From IMG/VR virus record IMGVR_UViG_2718218452_000011: a DNA stretch of 49,640 nt; one strand, 5' to 3'. The stretch comes from a virus. Taxonomy: Duplodnaviria; Heunggongvirae; Uroviricota; Caudoviricetes. A program made the position numbers and the translations under genes. Under the pieces are notes generated by a model. The model saw nothing but the letters and a program-made list of their open reading frames with translations, searched no databases and was not told the origin of the DNA. Every line of letters starts with the position of its first letter. The stretch's first letter is position 1. Shown piece after piece: positions 3,096-11,713 of this stretch.

Positions 3096-6000
3096 TAAGC
3101 CAGATGCAGTGCTTCAAGACGACGAAGATCAAAGTCGTTTAATTCGTCGGTGTAACTTTCGGTAATCGGTGCTGGCCAGTTGTTTGTCTCTAGGGCTTCG
3201 TTTATCTGGCGTAGCGTCCGGCGATATTCCTGTCGACCAAGTTCCAGGAGTTCCTGCGAGGCTTCCACGACAGCCACCCAGTGATAGCCAGCATCTTTGT
3301 TGACGAAGATCCAGAAAAATTTGTCCAGGTTTGCCACATCGCAATACATTGCGGCGCTGAGGTGATAATCACGCTCAATAATTTCACGGTGCAGGCGATC
3401 TTTAAGTCGTTCCTGCCGCACATAACCGAGGCTGACTGACTTCACGTCAGCGCAAATGCTTTCGTATGGCAGCCGGATTTCGATATCAGGACGGACCCTG
3501 ATTTCCAGCCCGGTTTCTTCATCAAACCCGAAATAGCTGATTTCAGATTTGCGATCCGGGTGGTTGAGTAGCCTTGCTGCATCGGTATTGTTTTGCAGTG
3601 CCGCGTGAATATTTTTTGCCTGTTCATACATATCCGGACTGATAAACGTTTTCCCGGCGTTTTCTTCTTGCTGGCGTTTTTGCCAGTCCTCCAGTGTCAC
3701 CAGTTCCGGGCGAATTTTCCGTGCGATTTCGGTTAATTGCTCTTTTGTGCCACTGATGTTGTAAGGCAAAGATTTAGCACGTTCTTTTTTTGCCAGTTCT
3801 GGGTCTACAGTTTCAATTTGATCCAGAAGCTGCTCCCGTGCTCCACTGGTTTTCAACAGAGGAGGGAGGCTTGCGTTGTATTCTTTAATACAGGCTTTCA
3901 TTGCTGATGCTGTATGTTTTTCCCCCTCAGGAATACGCCGAAATTCCACCGGAAGCGAACCGTAAAGGATGCCTGTTTCTTCGGCCCCAGCACTTACAGA
4001 CAGTGGCTGTATAAGAGTGCTGTTGTAGCTTTCGATCCACTCTTTCATCTGCTCTGGTGTCATCAGTGCTGGCAGACTGGCATTGTGTTTTTTAATGATG
4101 GCGATCAGTTCGTTAGAAGTAGTAACCACATATTCAGGAACCGGTACCGGAATGGCATATTCATCAGCGAATTTATCCGTTTCCAGAACATAGCTGTGAA
4201 TGATCCGCCCACGCAGCAGTGCATCACTTTCCTCGTTCGGAATAGTTCCGGCAATGTGCCGCCCGTGGTAATACATCAGGCTGATACGGGCATCCTTCAG
4301 CATCGTGCTGCTTATTCCGTTGGCGGAGTGATAAACCTCGTTCGGGAGGTTTTCATAGCGGCCTGGCTCGAAATATGACGGCCACATGATTTCAGTTGCT
4401 ACAGGAGCTGACGCTTCGCCAGTTTCATCACTGCAATCGCGATGCGGATCGCTGCCAGCATTCTCATTGTGCGGATGTTCAGCGCCTTCCATTTCCTCCG
4501 GATCTTTTTCCTGATATTCATTCTGATTTTCTTCATTAAAGGTTTTCTGATACGTTGCGTCGCCCATCACCGCACCACAATCAGGGCAGTTGCCGCCGCC
4601 GGTCTGACCGCAGGCGGTGCAGATCTTTTCCGGTTCCTGTTGCACTACTGGTTCAGGTTGTTTCGTTTCTGGCTCGTTTTGTAACGCATTTGAGCTGTTT
4701 TGTTCCGCTTTCTGGTCGTTCCGTTCCGATTCTTGCTGGTTCTGGTTCACAGAATCGCGGGTTTCAATCCCCTTCACCCATTTCGGATCATTCGGGTCGC
4801 TAATCCCTGCAACAAATTCTCCGCGAGAGGCAGCAAGCAGTTCATTAGCGTCAGGCTGGCTGATATTGGCTGCCTGCATAATTTTGTTTACTTCGTCAGC
4901 GGTAACTTTTACCTGATTAACCGGATCTATCTGCGCCTGAGTATCCAGCGATTGCGTGTTTTGGCGATGTTCAGTCGTACCCGACTCCATTGCTTCAGTC
5001 GTTGCCTGTTCATCTGCCATTGCGTCAGACGGTTGTGATTTTTCCTCATTATTTTTTTCTTCTTCTGTTTCGCGTTTAGCAGCCAGTTCGCGGTTAACTT
5101 CTTCCAGGATATCTTTTTCCGGTGTATGTCGTGCAGCAGCGAGAGTTTCCTCGGTAGGGTTCTCGTGATCAGTCTCCGTTAAATAGGCGTTGATATACCC
5201 CTGAAGGCGCCCCGGGTAGTGATAAAACTCAGGGTGTGCGCTTCGGATAAGTGCAAAAATAGCGGCACGGGAATAATCCAGGATACCCGGGATTGCGCGA
5301 AGTGCTGCGGACCATTCTTTGAACGGACTTTCTTTCTTCCGGACGACTTCTTTTGCGCGACGATAAACGCTGCCCGGAATTTCATAAATATTAAAATCCA
5401 TCGGAAGTGTGGCTGCTGCAATCTCCACATCCAGCGTATCGAAGGTGTGTACTAAATTCGGATTGCGATCGGTTTTGTTCCCGCCGCCAGCATTAGCACC
5501 GGAAGGCGTGCGGGTGATACGTGAAACACGATTTCCCTTCATCCACTCTTTTGTCAGCAGACCGCGATCGGTGTAGTCAGCGCCCAGGTATGCTTCGAAA
5601 AAAGCGGTCATCAGTCCCAGGTCTGAATTACCAGGATTAGGGAAAACTTTGTCAGTGTCGCGTACCAGTTTGTGGAGATCGCGAATTTCCAGTGGTTCGA
5701 GTTGCGCTGCTTTATTTGAGATGGCCAGCGCGGCAACGGCGGGAAGTTTTTCATCCTGTGCGTTATGTAATGCGCGCAGTTCGTCCCGCGAAACGTGAGT
5801 GATCGGTTTTTCGCTGCCGTGCTGTGCCAGCCATCGAACAGGCAGAATCTGACCTGAAACCGGCAGGAGCATGTTCTCCTCAATCTCAGCCATGTCTTCG
5901 CCGTTGACGTTGGTATTGTCAGTGCTGGCTGGTTTATCCTGAACAGAGGGCGAGGGCGCGATAAATACCATTGTGATGCCATCTTCCCCGCCTTTTTCGT

Positions 6001-7994: not shown

Positions 7995-8185
7995 CTTATC
8001 TCTCCCCTTAACGCCGGGTGGCGGAACTAAAACCTACAGCGCCGTGCTGTTCTTGATATAAATATTAGTAACGCGGATATTTTAAGTCAACAGTATGGCG
8101 TATAATATTTTTGATTTGGTAACTATGTAAATGTTTTTCAAGGGAAAAAATATTAGTTATACAGCTGATTTGCAGAAGTTATGGC

Positions 8186-8218
8186 ACAAAAAAACCGACT
8201 AAGACGTCGGTTTTTTTG
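8186..8218. terminator. Bidirectional rho-independent terminator-like hairpin (A-run, GC stem, T-run)
   Basis: AAAAAAACCGAC-TAAGAC-GTCGGTTTTTTT located just downstream (minus sense) of racR. Confidence 0.5.
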
Positions 8219-8243
8219 TTGTGGATGGGGTAATGAGCGGTGG

Positions 8244-8705
8244 CTACTGGTTACGTTTCTTTAGTGCCAGCATGTTCTCGAAGGCTTCCTCGTAGAGCTT
8301 GTTTAGTCCACGTAGCTGGTTAAGGAGTTTGGCTTTTTCTGACGCAGGTAGAATCTCGAAGAGGTTAAGTAACTCTGCCTGTTCTTCATTGACCAGCCTC
8401 CATCCTTTGCCTGAAAAGCTATCATCATAAGTATCTGATGATCTTACATAATTCATTAAGTCTTTAAGGTCTTCTCGAATGTCCTCTGGTTTTACCTTTA
8501 ACAGAGCCGCAAATTTTAGCGCAGCGTCGGTATTTACCGGTATCTTGCCGTTCAGATACTGGCTAACGGTGCCTTGAGATTCGAATCCTAACAACTCAGC
8601 CGCCAGCTCTTGAGTCAGCTTCAGCTCTTTTTTTCTTGCATTCCATGCGGCTTTTAAATTCTTGCTCGCTTCTGGAGTTGCAATCACTTCGCGTGTTTTT
8701 TTCAT
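8244..8705 (-). CDS. racR: Prophage repressor, XRE-family HTH (RacR-like, 153 aa)
   Basis: N-terminal HTH (..LKLTQELAAELLGFESQGTVSQYLNGK..); divergently arranged with a Cro-like gene across a 100-bp control region. Confidence 0.8.
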   Translation of the reverse strand: MKKTREVIATPEASKNLKAAWNARKKELKLTQELAAELLGFESQGTVSQYLNGKIPVNTDAALKFAALLKVKPEDIREDLKDLMNYVRSSDTYDDSFSGKGWRLVNEEQAELLNLFEILPASEKAKLLNQLRGLNKLYEEAFENMLALKKRNQ

Positions 8706-8806: not shown

Positions 8807-9088
8807 TTGGCTATGAACTTAAGAGACTATTTAAAAGAGAAACATATCACCCAGCTACAGTTTGGGAAGCTAACGGGTTTATCTCAGGTGCATGTAAGTC
8901 GAGTGCTGGGGGGCTATGAAAGATTCAGCCCTGAAAAAGCATTACGTGTTGCTGAAGTAACGAATTTCGAGGTTACACCTCATGAACTCCGGCCTGATAT
9001 CTACCCGAATCCGACCGATGGTTTACCTGTTGGATGTAAGGCTAACACACAAAATGCACAGGAGTTGATTCATGAAAATCAGGCATGA
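8807..9088 (+). CDS. ydaS: Cro-like HTH protein YdaS (93 aa)
   Basis: MAMNLRDYLKEKHITQLQFGKLTGLSQVHVSRVL.. HTH; position and sequence as recalled for Rac YdaS. Confidence 0.75.
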   Translation: MAMNLRDYLKEKHITQLQFGKLTGLSQVHVSRVLGGYERFSPEKALRVAEVTNFEVTPHELRPDIYPNPTDGLPVGCKANTQNAQELIHENQA

Positions 9089-9494
9089 GCACATCGAATC
9101 AGTGCTGTTAGCCCTGGCTGCTGAAAAAGGGCAGGCATGGGTAGCCAATGCAATTACTGAAGAATATCTGCGCCAGGGGGGCGGCGAATTGCCCCTGGTT
9201 CCAGGCAAGGACTGGAACAATCAGCAGAATATCTATCACCGTTGGTTGAAAGGTGAAACGAAAACGCAAAGAGAAAAAATTCAGAAGCTGATCCCAGCAA
9301 TTCTGGCAATCCTTCCGCGCGAGCTGCGTCACCGACTCTGCATCTTCGATACCCTGGAACGCCGTGCATTACTGGCGGCGCAGGAAGCGTTGAGTACGGC
9401 AATTGATGCGCATGATGATGCAGTCCAGGCCGTTTACCGGAAAGCGCATTTCAGCGGCGGTGGTTCGTCCGGCGATTCTGTTGTTGTTCATTAA
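9072..9494 (+). CDS. ydaT: YdaT-like protein (140 aa)
   Basis: Overlaps the ydaS 3' end; sequence as recalled for Rac YdaT. Confidence 0.7.
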   Translation: MKIRHEHIESVLLALAAEKGQAWVANAITEEYLRQGGGELPLVPGKDWNNQQNIYHRWLKGETKTQREKIQKLIPAILAILPRELRHRLCIFDTLERRALLAAQEALSTAIDAHDDAVQAVYRKAHFSGGGSSGDSVVVH

Positions 9495-9506
9495 GGTGAT
9501 GTGGTG

Positions 9507-9803
9507 ATGGAAAAATATGAACTGAAAAAATACCGACTTAAAACACTGGAAGGCGAAACATTGCTTCAGCGTATAGCCCGAAATGTTGCCTGGTATGCCA
9601 TACGACTCTCTCTGCATCGCCATCTTGTTAACGGGTATCCCTCGTCAACGCTGTTGTTCATCAATATCAAAGATAAAGAAAAAGCCGCAGAACACATTCG
9701 GTGGATGGAACTGGCGCAGGGACAAGCTCTTGATATTGAGTATGGCGATGAGATCGACTACAGCAAAGCTCAACCGCTGCGCCACGTAATTTTTAGGGGG
9801 TGA
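9507..9803 (+). CDS. Hypothetical protein (98 aa)
   Basis: ATG with AAGGTG RBS; no recognised domain. Confidence 0.45.
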   Translation: MEKYELKKYRLKTLEGETLLQRIARNVAWYAIRLSLHRHLVNGYPSSTLLFINIKDKEKAAEHIRWMELAQGQALDIEYGDEIDYSKAQPLRHVIFRG

Positions 9804-10055
9804 TTATGACATCTTTTCTTTTAGCTTTTGTAGGGCAACGATCAGTTCATCAATTTGGGTTGCATCCATTATCAACTCTAGTTTGTGATAAGCCCCGTAA
9901 TTTAGCTCCTGTGTGTGGAATTCCTGGGCAAGTATTTTTACTCCTCCGCGATTGAGCATTCCTGAGGTGCTAAAAATTTTTGACTCGGTTCCAGTAATAC
10001 TGTCCACCCAAAATTTTTGGGGGAATGGAGCAGACTTATCAAATGTAAAAGACAT
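9804..10055 (-). CDS. Hypothetical protein (83 aa), reverse-oriented AT-rich insert
   Basis: Strong AGGAGG RBS 6 nt upstream of ATG on minus strand; visibly AT-rich relative to flanks (by eye). Confidence 0.5.
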   Translation of the reverse strand: MSFTFDKSAPFPQKFWVDSITGTESKIFSTSGMLNRGGVKILAQEFHTQELNYGAYHKLELIMDATQIDELIVALQKLKEKMS

Positions 10056-10134
10056 GTCGAACCTCCTTTGGTTCTGTTGATTGGGGAATCACAGATTATA
10101 TCCGGAGGAAGGTTCGACACCAGATGAGGCAATT

Positions 10135-11259
10135 ATGGTTAAGGCTAAAAATATGCCAAATCCCATGCCAAAAACTAAGGCAAACAATGAGCCTTATCGC
10201 AAGGTAAAAATAACGATATGGGATGATCCCAAATTTAGGGCGTTATCTCCTCTGCCTCCAAGTGGACAGAGTTTGTTTATTTATCTGCTGACCAGTCCAT
10301 TTACCGGGATTATTCCTGGGTTGTTTAAAGCCGGGCGGGCAGCAATGGCTGAAGAGTTGGGGTGGGATATCGAAGCCTTTGACTTAGCCTTAGGCGAAGC
10401 CATGAATCTTGGCATGGTGAAAGCAGATATCAAAGCCAGAGTTTTTTGGCTCCCGAATGCTGCGAAACACAATCCGCCAAACTCGATAAATGTCATTAAA
10501 TCCTGGGCAAAGGCATTCGCTTTAATTCCTGATTGTCCTCTCAAATGGGAGGCCAGGGAATCGCTGAGAGCCGCGTCCTACGGGGTTTCTGAGGCTTTTG
10601 GGATGGCATTCGATAAGGAAATCCCTTTGCCTGAGGATAAGCCTAAGGATAAGGCTAACGCTTTGTCATGCGGTATCCAGATAACAGATAACAGATATAT
10701 AAACCCCACACATAACGCGCGCGTGCGCGAGAGTGCTCCGGCCAGTGAGGCAAATGGCATGCCGTTGCAGACAGCGGAACCTGATTACCTGGAAGGCCTG
10801 AGCGAACCCATCGGGAAATTTCCGATGACCGATGGCTGGCATCCGTCGCCGGATTTTCGACGACGGGCTGCGCTGTGGGGCGTGGCTCTTCCTGAGCCGG
10901 AATTTACACCAGCTGAACTTGCCGCCTTCCGGGACTACTGGGCAGCGGAGGGCAAAGTGTTCACGCAGGTTCAGTGGGAGCAGAAATTCGCCCGTCACGT
11001 AAATCACGTCAGGGCGCAGGTTAAACCAGTCAGCAAGGGGGGGAGCCATGCAGCCGCACCAGGTGGCACCGCATCACGGGCAGTTCAGGAAATTCGGGCA
11101 GCACGTGAGCAGTGGGAACGTGAAAACGGATTTATCAGCGACGGAAACGGCGTGGAAGCTGTGGGAACTCATGGGGGAGGTTTATTCGAACCGCTGGACC
11201 CAGAAGAACGGGGCCGCACCTTCGAAGCTCTGGATTGCACAGATTGGCGCGATGACTGA
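10135..11259 (+). CDS. Putative replication initiation protein (O-like position; DnaT-like C-terminal region)
   Basis: Track ORF 10081..11259 (TTG); likely ATG at 10135 with GAGG RBS; first gene of the replication pair upstream of the P-like gene. Confidence 0.55.
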   Translation: MVKAKNMPNPMPKTKANNEPYRKVKITIWDDPKFRALSPLPPSGQSLFIYLLTSPFTGIIPGLFKAGRAAMAEELGWDIEAFDLALGEAMNLGMVKADIKARVFWLPNAAKHNPPNSINVIKSWAKAFALIPDCPLKWEARESLRAASYGVSEAFGMAFDKEIPLPEDKPKDKANALSCGIQITDNRYINPTHNARVRESAPASEANGMPLQTAEPDYLEGLSEPIGKFPMTDGWHPSPDFRRRAALWGVALPEPEFTPAELAAFRDYWAAEGKVFTQVQWEQKFARHVNHVRAQVKPVSKGGSHAAAPGGTASRAVQEIRAAREQWERENGFISDGNGVEAVGTHGGGLFEPLDPEERGRTFEALDCTDWRDD

Positions 11260-11713
11260 GCAGCAAATCCGGCTGGTCTGCCGCCAGTGCATGGACCGCT
11301 GCCGGGCGGGTGAAACATGGCCTCCGGACCTGGCTGAGTTTGTGGCGCTGATTTCGGAAAGCGGGGCAAATCCATTTGGTCTGACGGTGGATAACGTGAT
11401 GGAGGAATATCGCCGCTGGCGCAATGAGTCCTGGCGATACGACGGAAGCGATAAATACCCGTGGTCTCAGCCTGTGCTGTATCACATTTGCCTCGAGATG
11501 CGTTCAAAGGGGATTGAGCGCCAGATGACCGAAGGGGAGTTAAAACGGCTTGCAGAACGGCAGCTGACGAAATGGGCAAAGCATGTTGGTAACGGCCTGA
11601 GCGTTCCGCCAGTCCGGCGGCAACTGGCAGCACCAGAACGCCCGTCGGGGCCAACACCAATTGAGTTGCTGAAACAGGAATATGAACGCCGGAAGGCAGC
11701 TGGTTTTGTTTGA
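11048..11713 (+). CDS. Replication protein P-like DnaB helicase loader (221 aa)
   Basis: C-terminal two-thirds aligns by eye with lambda P as recalled (..PPDLAEFVALI..YPWSQPVLYHICLEM..GELKRLAERQL..); strong AAGGGGGGGAG RBS before ATG 11048; overlaps upstream gene by about 210 nt. Confidence 0.65.
   Translation: MQPHQVAPHHGQFRKFGQHVSSGNVKTDLSATETAWKLWELMGEVYSNRWTQKNGAAPSKLWIAQIGAMTEQQIRLVCRQCMDRCRAGETWPPDLAEFVALISESGANPFGLTVDNVMEEYRRWRNESWRYDGSDKYPWSQPVLYHICLEMRSKGIERQMTEGELKRLAERQLTKWAKHVGNGLSVPPVRRQLAAPERPSGPTPIELLKQEYERRKAAGFV

Follow-up and report, generated by a model that had tools for sequence, protein, structure and literature searches.

What are two small genes that meet tail to tail doing between a CII-type regulator and the replication genes of a Rac-like prophage? 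The question arises in a 49,640-nt stretch of an E. coli Rac-like prophage (IMG/VR record IMGVR_UViG_2718218452_000011), here called the window, whose full length is the reference for all positions. A rightward gene of 98 aa, orf98, and a leftward gene of 83 aa, orf83, lie in it between ydaT and a replication initiator gene. Published dissections of such immunity regions, namely RacR/YdaS/YdaT (PMC5700373, PMC11879457) and PaaR2/YdaS/YdaT of CP-933P (PMC8630535, PMC9986795), place two genes, ydaS and ydaT, in the interval from repressor to replication gene, and they leave the genes that follow ydaT in that interval untreated. Comparison of sequences identifies orf98 and orf83 as genuine, fast-evolving protein genes, and the pair as a rare, mobile and selectively maintained two-gene accessory module in the Rac/CP-933P-type early region, beside a CII-type regulator. 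The function proposed below, a protective factor of the lysogen with its own early partner, is tentative.

Two protein genes with abutting stops

The features of the insert on which the argument depends are these:

9507-9803, plus strand: orf98, 98 aa; open reading frame (ORF) 9501..9803 with ATG at 9507 (a GTG at 9501 as alternative start would give 100 aa)
9495..9499, plus strand: Shine-Dalgarno (SD) sequence GGTGA of orf98, right behind the ydaT stop (9492-9494), which leaves 7 nt to the ATG at 9507
10055..9804, minus strand: orf83, 83 aa, with ATG at 10055
10067..10062, minus strand: SD sequence AGGAGG of orf83, 6 nt before the ATG
9858..10040, minus strand: middle of orf83 (183 nt), either exchanged or far diverged in the Salmonella enterica copy L115 (CP191473)
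10056..10118: imperfect inverted repeat (hairpin) some 63 bp long, here called the socket, with arms CATGTCGAACCTCC...GGTTCGRCACC; it abuts the orf83 start codon and contains the orf83 SD and a -10 box
10100..10095, minus strand: candidate -10 box TATAAT in the apical region of the socket, with a predicted leftward start near 10088 and the SD free
10132..10159, minus strand: second leftward promoter-like site TTGGCA-16-CATAAT (10/12), weak, within the 5' end of the replication gene

The two frames end back to back. The TGA of orf98 occupies 9801-9803 and the TAA of orf83 is read from 9806 to 9804, so that the stops abut at 9803/9804 with zero spacer and zero overlap. An earlier, sequence-only reading of this DNA had described the spacerless meeting of a 98-aa plus-strand and an 83-aa minus-strand gene, the strong AGGAGG ribosome-binding site of the latter, and its AT-rich composition and antisense orientation to the early rightward operon; each of these descriptions is borne out. 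The GC content of orf83, 0.397, is the lowest of the region; orf98 has 0.455, ydaT 0.52 and the replication gene 0.525, and the window as a whole has 0.481. The repressor gene and ydaS are likewise low, at about 0.44.

Both frames show the signature of protein-coding selection. Against the diverged copies of Citrobacter freundii (L003) and of a metagenome-assembled contig (L007), the genes of the window gave ratios of nonsynonymous to synonymous divergence (dN/dS) of 0.09-0.14 (orf98) and 0.20-0.34 (orf83), and the annotated frame had the lowest ratio of the six frames in nearly all comparisons for both genes. Because purifying selection acts on both frames, the two are taken as genuine genes; the annotation pipeline PGAP also calls both of them in 18 complete genomes. 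For the same locus pairs, synonymous divergence (dS) is lower in orf83 (0.30-0.41) than in orf98 (0.52-1.26), which suggests either an extra RNA-level constraint on orf83 or differing recombination histories.

Both products are soluble and lack a hydrophobic segment; the orf98 protein is basic (isoelectric point 9.2), and that of orf83 has an isoelectric point of 6.05. The orf98 family is recognised by ETLIQRIARNVAWYALR close to the N-terminus and VIFRG at the C-terminus. The orf83 family conserves MxFTFDK, WVDS, RGxIKILxQEF and a C-terminal helix, QIDELIxxLQKLKEKM. As the sequence-only reading had stated, no domain can be recognised in either of them, and searches with both proteins and their family profiles and alignments gave no usable match in Pfam, PHROGs, NCBIfam, PADLOC or PDB sequences. 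One resemblance in orf98, ETLLQRIARNV to ESLLERITRKL of the essential helix of lambda CIII, was rejected as not significant (1.0 bit; 153 of 20,000 shuffles as good); orf98 and 13 family members have no PF02061 match, and BLASTP gave no alignment of orf98 with lambda CIII.

Homologues of orf98 are as distant as 32-38% identity, with the profile search reaching relatives at 38-47%. All members of the orf83 family are small, about 78-86 aa: five more proteins of 78-86 aa came from an exhaustive HMMER search with the orf83 profile against 1.84 billion representatives, and a scan of GTDB species representatives gave zero matches. Three giant repeat proteins that matched this profile are artefacts, their scores being inflated by 'MLNRGNIKIL' repeated 4-8 times. 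A word-indexed search of 5.8 billion proteins returned a handful of close relatives.

The pair, its slot and the socket

Far from being universally conserved core genes of known function, orf98 and orf83 are carried as a pair by 18 of 5426 complete E. coli genomes. In E. coli C7 (NZ_CP010240), the segment that was compared, window 9400-10150, is 100% identical. The IMG/VR scan recovered near-identical copies only, and the pair was not found in isolated phages (INPHARED) or plasmids (PLSDB), both of which do hold the socket. About ten lineages bear it, in E. coli, Citrobacter, Enterobacter and Salmonella, with identities down to 37-47% for orf98 and 46-57% for orf83. Exact tail-to-tail abutment recurs in nine of them: the window type, L003-6, L007, L088/89 (Enterobacter bugandensis), L090 (E. 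coli), L092 (Citrobacter braakii), L109, L113 and L115 (Salmonella enterica). In the tenth, L114, the two genes overlap by 21 nt.

The surroundings are less constant. Repressor, cro, ydaT subtype and replication module around the pair vary by lineage, and L114 has no ydaT; there, pair and socket lie between cro and a lambda-type cII. Judged from such arrangements, the control element travels with the pair. Some strains hold frameshifted or truncated single partners (P0010, P0017, L091). In Yokenella regensburgei (L087, 3980-4599), two tandem paralogues of the orf98 family follow ydaT, the second ending in LFRY, not VIFRG, with no orf83 homologue. A diverged orf98 paralogue in L087 and L107/L108 is overlapped on the opposite strand by a conserved 75-aa ORF.

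A search of IMG/VR with 24 nt of the element gave 77 further loci. Behind the shared start signals, the slot exists in at least four states:

orf98/orf83: the convergent pair
Cassette B: a 151-aa leftward ORF overlapping a 137-aa rightward ORF (phrog_37051)
Cassette C (CP-933P): a 151-aa leftward gene of NCBIfam NF033230, 'ECs1072 family phage-associated protein', overlapping a 169-aa rightward ORF (phrog_8304)
Empty: 5 nt separate the ydaT stop from the element, and ATA stands in place of the ATG

Empty sites are found in L012 and L044, whose 140-aa ydaT genes are near-identical to that of the window, and other cassettes stand at the slot in L002, L008 and L009. A Xenorhabdus genome holds further slot cargo of 99 aa, and the Rac prophage of K-12 lacks both element and cassette, its ydaT-ydaU gap measuring 12 nt. 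These sites and the rarity of the pair support the claim of the sequence-only reading that the locus is an acquired insert; its view of the reverse gene as an independent insert needs adjusting, the insert being the whole pair.

The other slot occupants are likewise convergent plus/minus ORF pairs, and they are unrelated to orf98 and orf83 as far as the profiles tell. Alignment with hhalign was not significant for orf98 against the 137-aa ORF, orf98 against the 169-aa ORF or orf83 against the 75-aa ORF. The CP-933P slot-mate scores 105.7 bits against NF033230, whose curated cut-off is 70 bits; orf83 has no NCBIfam match. NF033230 aside, none of the slot cargo proteins matched a known protein family, nor did any match a known defence model in PADLOC-DB 2.0. 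Within several of these cassettes (L009 1861-2509; L008 1875-2508; L087 4279-4716; L107 3065-3395), long ORFs on opposite strands overlap by 228-317 nt, and both remain open in diverged copies. Windowed dN/dS for cassettes B, C and the Yokenella type shows constraint alternating between strands, which leaves their coding strand ambiguous, and database annotation disagrees as well: PHROGs has the plus ORFs and NCBIfam the minus ORF.

The shared control element is the socket. When diverged copies of the pair are aligned, homology extends about 70 nt upstream of the orf83 ATG and is better conserved than the coding regions. The corresponding segment of the window, about 10048-10125, is 92-100% identical in prophages without the pair, namely CP-933P of O157:H7 EDL933 (L009), 06-00048 (L002) and PP818812 (L008), and in these three a different leftward ORF follows the AGGAGG-N6-ATG that orf83 also uses. 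This AGGAGG is invariant across all copies, loci with other cargo included. In L009 the socket lies at 2509-2573, and it recurs in L088, L090, L092, L087, L106, L107, L114 and L116, placed between the CII-type gene or cargo and the rightward gene that follows. L008 is recorded as PP818812.1, 'Actinobacillus phage vB_Apl-pPE4'; its 78-nt socket segment (window 10048-10125) is 100% identical to that of the window and its ydaT near-identical. These matches to E. coli prophage sequence make the stated Actinobacillus host look doubtful, and L008 may be an induced E. coli prophage.

Folded as plus-strand RNA, the socket gives an extended hairpin (-35.3 kcal/mol, z = -3.95); the minus strand reaches -27.8 kcal/mol. 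Its 17 outer pairs are retained over 12 sequence variants, distant ones found via protein homology included, with alternation of UA, UG and CG; several of the G-U pairs would be A-C mismatches on the opposite strand. The interior varies in sequence with pairing preserved, and the left arm holds the complement of the orf83 SD. Rfam gave no match for the socket at E<=1. Possible roles for the element are a site of RNase III action or retroregulation, leftward termination, masking of the SD and linkage for recombination. A candidate YdaT operator at the socket, TTGATTGGGGAATCAC, was rejected: its spacing is N4, not N6, and it is degraded in CP-933P-type sockets.

How cassettes come and go may be read from L106, where a solo orf83-like gene lies between two hairpin copies (about 1640-1700 and about 1260-1325), one directly behind ydaT and the other ahead of a DUF1376 replication gene. 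This two-copy arrangement is what insertion of a cassette by recombination at the element would leave. The inverted repeat thus stands on both sides of the L106 gene and on one side of the cassette elsewhere. No IntI gene appears among the called genes or Pfam matches of the examined loci, attC core sites not having been looked for, and ordinary homologous recombination would account for cassette exchange equally well as an integron-like mechanism.

Exchange has also reached into orf83. Between the window and L115, the control element is 97% identical, the first 15 nt of orf83 93% and its last 54 nt 85%, but the centre of orf83 is only 52% identical at the nucleotide level, with indels. The neighbouring orf98 is 90% identical in nucleotides and 92% in protein. 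The L115 protein is still a family member that retains MSFTF.., WVD, RG.I..L and the C-terminal helix. This profile of identities implies that a distant allele of the orf83 core has recombined beside a window-type orf98, and a swapped centre of this kind is, on sequence grounds, the pattern expected of a specificity-bearing region.

Neighbouring genes and known systems

Around the insert, and besides recE/recT and kilR, which the window also carries as Rac-like prophage genes, the relevant neighbours are the following:

8244-8705, leftward: repressor gene with a helix-turn-helix, its orientation shared by orf83
8807-9088: ydaS (cro-like)
9065..9082, plus strand: YdaT-box-like inverted repeat TTGATTCATGAAAATCAG, overlapping the ydaT start codon, outside the insert
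9072-9494, plus strand: ydaT, CII-analogue regulator and left neighbour of the insert (PF06254, E 3.8e-11; phrog_163 'CII-like', E 6e-37)
10135..11259, plus strand: replication initiator gene with a DnaT-type domain (phrog_1408), right neighbour; GAGG SD at 10126-10129

PGAP labels the ydaT of the window 'toxin YdaT family'. The repeat TTGATTCATGAAAATCAG is one mismatch from TTGATT-N6-AATCAA, and its position matches the footprinted Rac YdaT-box at the start of ydaT (PMC11879457; PMC9986795). The replication gene probably starts at the ATG at 10135 and not at the later PGAP start about 210 nt downstream (about 10345; L001 4946): the phrog_1408 profile alignment begins at residue 20 of the long form, which is also the form annotated in PP818812. 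For the P-like gene, the PGAP form (L001 5853-6314) is shorter than the longest ORF (11048-11713). Weak sub-threshold Rfam matches at 8145-8222 (IS128, E 0.021; STnc370, E 0.24), just 3' of the leftward repressor gene, probably reflect a terminator-like hairpin. The late-regulatory region of the Citrobacter freundii prophage L003 holds, at 5540-5761, a 73-aa gene with a Pfam match to STb_secrete, the heat-stable enterotoxin B family.

Several known systems offer partial parallels. Phage morons, in the concept of Hendrix, Juhala and Casjens, are extra genes between conserved modules of lambdoid prophages. Like them, the pair is present or absent at one site between otherwise near-identical prophages, and orf83 has a lower GC content, runs against the operon, has its own candidate promoter and is presumably expressed in the lysogen. 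Unlike them, the unit here is a convergent pair with one member in the early operon and no flanking terminator, and the candidate promoter and ribosome-binding site of orf83 belong to a conserved element common to other cargo, not brought in by the gene.

Lambda pO/oop lies at the cII-O junction. The slot likewise falls between a CII-type gene and a replication initiator, its presumed transcription runs leftward and antisense to the CII-type gene, and where no cassette is present the element borders directly on the ydaT stop codon. Lambda OOP, however, is a terminated RNA of about 77 nt, whereas the leftward unit here is protein-coding and shows neither an OOP-like terminator nor an Rfam match, so the equivalence is one of position only. 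A second lambda counterpart is CIII, the FtsH inhibitor that protects CII: orf98 is similarly small, early and beside a CII analogue, but CIII has 54 aa and is encoded in the leftward pL operon, and the 11-residue resemblance lacks statistical support. For svsR and other published prophage small RNAs, no link to the locus was found.

Prophage defence with cognate self-immunity is known from BstA/aba (PMC8585504). P22 sieB/esc is another example. The logic proposed for orf83 and orf98, a factor made in the lysogen that harms phage development and a means of exempting the lytic growth of the resident prophage, resembles both; PADLOC and Pfam reveal no homology to them, the proteins here are much smaller, and a self-immunity role for orf98 is a guess. 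The hotspots of P2 and P4 prophages hold variable sets of anti-phage genes (PMC9122126). The slot shares with them a fixed backbone position, conserved flanks and many alternative, unrelated small cassettes; it differs in that no occupant matches a known defence system, the slot is inside the early operon, and the cassettes measure only 0.5-0.7 kb. A further comparison is the ECs1072 family of CP-933P and Sp-type prophages, also uncharacterised, whose gene uses the same socket between ydaT and the replication gene, with its ATG directly behind the same SD and inverted repeat. That gene is not homologous to orf83, however, encodes 151 aa and overlaps the plus-strand phrog_8304 ORF by about 317 nt.

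Proposed reciprocal expression and competing explanations

The arrangement of the two genes suggests how they might be expressed. No intrinsic terminator was found on either strand in 9000-10050, so leftward and rightward transcription of the two genes must collide and yield complementary RNAs. The position of orf98, for which no promoter of its own was predicted, would have it read with the early rightward operon, and orf83 would be read leftward from the socket. In the repressed prophage, orf83 alone would be made. On derepression or infection, strong early rightward transcription would make orf98, and convergent transcription with antisense pairing would silence orf83. From these features we infer reciprocal expression, with orf83 on in the lysogen and orf98 after derepression.

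The promoter assumed for orf83 is a plausible candidate. The sequence-only reading had given the reverse gene its own promoter; a consensus -10, TATAAT, does stand in the socket and is conserved in window-type sockets, but there is no -35, and the signals belong to an element that also serves non-homologous leftward genes. The lack of a -35 is why a consensus scan missed the site, and that scan found two promoter sites where 2.1 were expected by chance. Lysogen detection of a slot-mate was counted toward expression from the slot in lysogens: ECs1072 was detected in uninduced cultures of O157 Sakai, where it is growth-phase regulated and 2.13-fold down on the tabulated transition (PMC2241611).

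On this logic, the preferred reading, given a probability of about 0.35, is that orf83 protects the lysogen, or excludes other phages from it, as a factor expressed there, and that orf98 is the prophage's own early partner, which neutralises or supersedes orf83 at the lytic switch. The system would then be a defence with self-immunity, orf98 sparing the prophage's own lytic growth from orf83. A number of observations weigh against it. The candidate promoter has no recognisable -35 and distant sockets carry TATACC, TATATC, TGTACT or TATATT in place of TATAAT, so the hairpin, and not a promoter, may be the selected feature. Many exclusion proteins have a membrane segment, and neither protein does (maximal 19-residue Kyte-Doolittle means 0.51 and 0.69), which sets both apart from SieA, SieB, Imm and Cor-like membrane proteins; Pfam also gave no match to the SieB family, PF14163, for either. 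Superinfection exclusion, which the sequence-only reading had listed as a candidate, remains a guess. Among known defence and exclusion families in PADLOC, Pfam and PHROGs, orf83 matched none and orf98 only HEC-05, a partial PADLOC match of 14.6 bits that covers 45 of 583 positions. AlphaFold2 models built on shallow alignments are poor (pLDDT 50.8 for orf83 and 43.2 for orf98) and lend no structural support. The partnership is also not obligatory, given that the orf83-like gene of L106 (P0031) stands alone and that the orf98-like genes of Yokenella L087 and of L107/L108 have no orf83 beside them, and an orf98 protein that stays 92% identical beside a swapped orf83 centre in L115 argues against tight allele-specific pairing.

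Other explanations meet the same evidence differently. A module that tunes the choice between lysis and lysogeny is possible, if doubtful: orf98 would assist the CII-type regulator early on, perhaps by shielding it from FtsH as CIII does or by modulating YdaT in another way; transcripts running leftward out of the socket would play the part of lambda OOP/pO or pRE, antisense to orf98, ydaT and ydaS and directed toward the repressor gene; and orf83 would be an added small regulator. The pair is indeed always beside a CII-type gene, after ydaT in nine lineages and just upstream of lambda-type cII in L114, at the positional equivalent of the lambda cII-O junction; orf83 is co-oriented with the repressor gene, in empty sites the leftward element leads directly into the 3' end of ydaT, and reverse promoters activated by YdaT are documented in Rac and CP-933P (PMC11879457, PMC8630535). 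The CIII resemblance that would help this explanation is insignificant, however, an OOP-like terminator and an Rfam match are lacking, the only YdaT-box-like sequence near the socket has the N4 spacing and is degraded in CP-933P-type sockets, and dispensability, seen in the empty sites and in the low frequency of the pair, would be unusual for core decision circuitry. It is rather unlikely that the two genes are independent passengers, orf98 an early host-takeover or anti-defence protein and orf83 an unrelated lysogenic-conversion moron, co-inherited through their 0 bp distance and recombination in conserved flanks. The allele shuffling in L115, the solo gene of L106 flanked by two sockets, the orf98-like genes without orf83, the tandem paralogue within the orf98 family and the unequal dS (0.5-1.3 for orf98 vs 0.3-0.4 for orf83) would all suit passengers; spacerless abutment kept in about nine lineages down to about 40-55% protein identity amid reshuffled surroundings would not, nor would the convergent ORF pairs of the other slot occupants.

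A broader, joint proposal is improbable as a whole: the socket would be portable and would unite the transcription and translation starts of a leftward gene with a site of recombination or processing, making the CII-replication junction of Rac/CP-933P-type prophages a hotspot of cassette exchange, and orf83 and orf98 would be a new family of lysogen-expressed anti-phage factor and its early self-immunity partner, with the swapped centre setting target specificity. Also improbable is a toxin-antitoxin or abortive-infection pair in which one protein is toxic and the other its antidote. The toxin-antitoxin-like function that the sequence-only reading had offered as a candidate fits two small adjacent genes on a mobile element whose convergent transcripts, overlapping in antisense, could give RNA-level control. 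It fares badly against the rest: the genes are on opposite strands and not co-transcribed, no toxin or antitoxin fold or DNA-binding antitoxin domain was found in Pfam, NCBIfam, PADLOC or PDB, neither protein has the small, hydrophobic character of a type I toxin, alleles are shuffled and genes occur solo, and the persistence of disrupted single partners speaks weakly against addiction. That the frames are non-functional, chance or decaying stretches in a spacer, might be thought of ORFans that are rare, sometimes disrupted and poorly predicted in structure. Because of the dN/dS values and the family conservation, with protein motifs kept at 32-57% identity over five genera, this explanation is effectively refuted, and strong, correctly spaced ribosome-binding sites precede both genes.

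If the genes proved to be unrelated passengers, the locus would be a routine phage mosaic insert. The slot itself, of which no published description was found, varies in content within a class of prophages that is very common in E. coli and Salmonella, and its element and cargo lie in the immunity region under study for RacR/YdaS/YdaT and PaaR2/YdaS/YdaT. It holds at least five unrelated 'dark-matter' cassettes behind one control element, the kind of place that in P2 and P4 yields new defence and counter-defence genes. Should the reciprocal logic be true, the pair would offer a compact, tractable example, about 0.6 kb in size, of mutually exclusive lysogen and early-lytic expression achieved by tail-to-tail placement.

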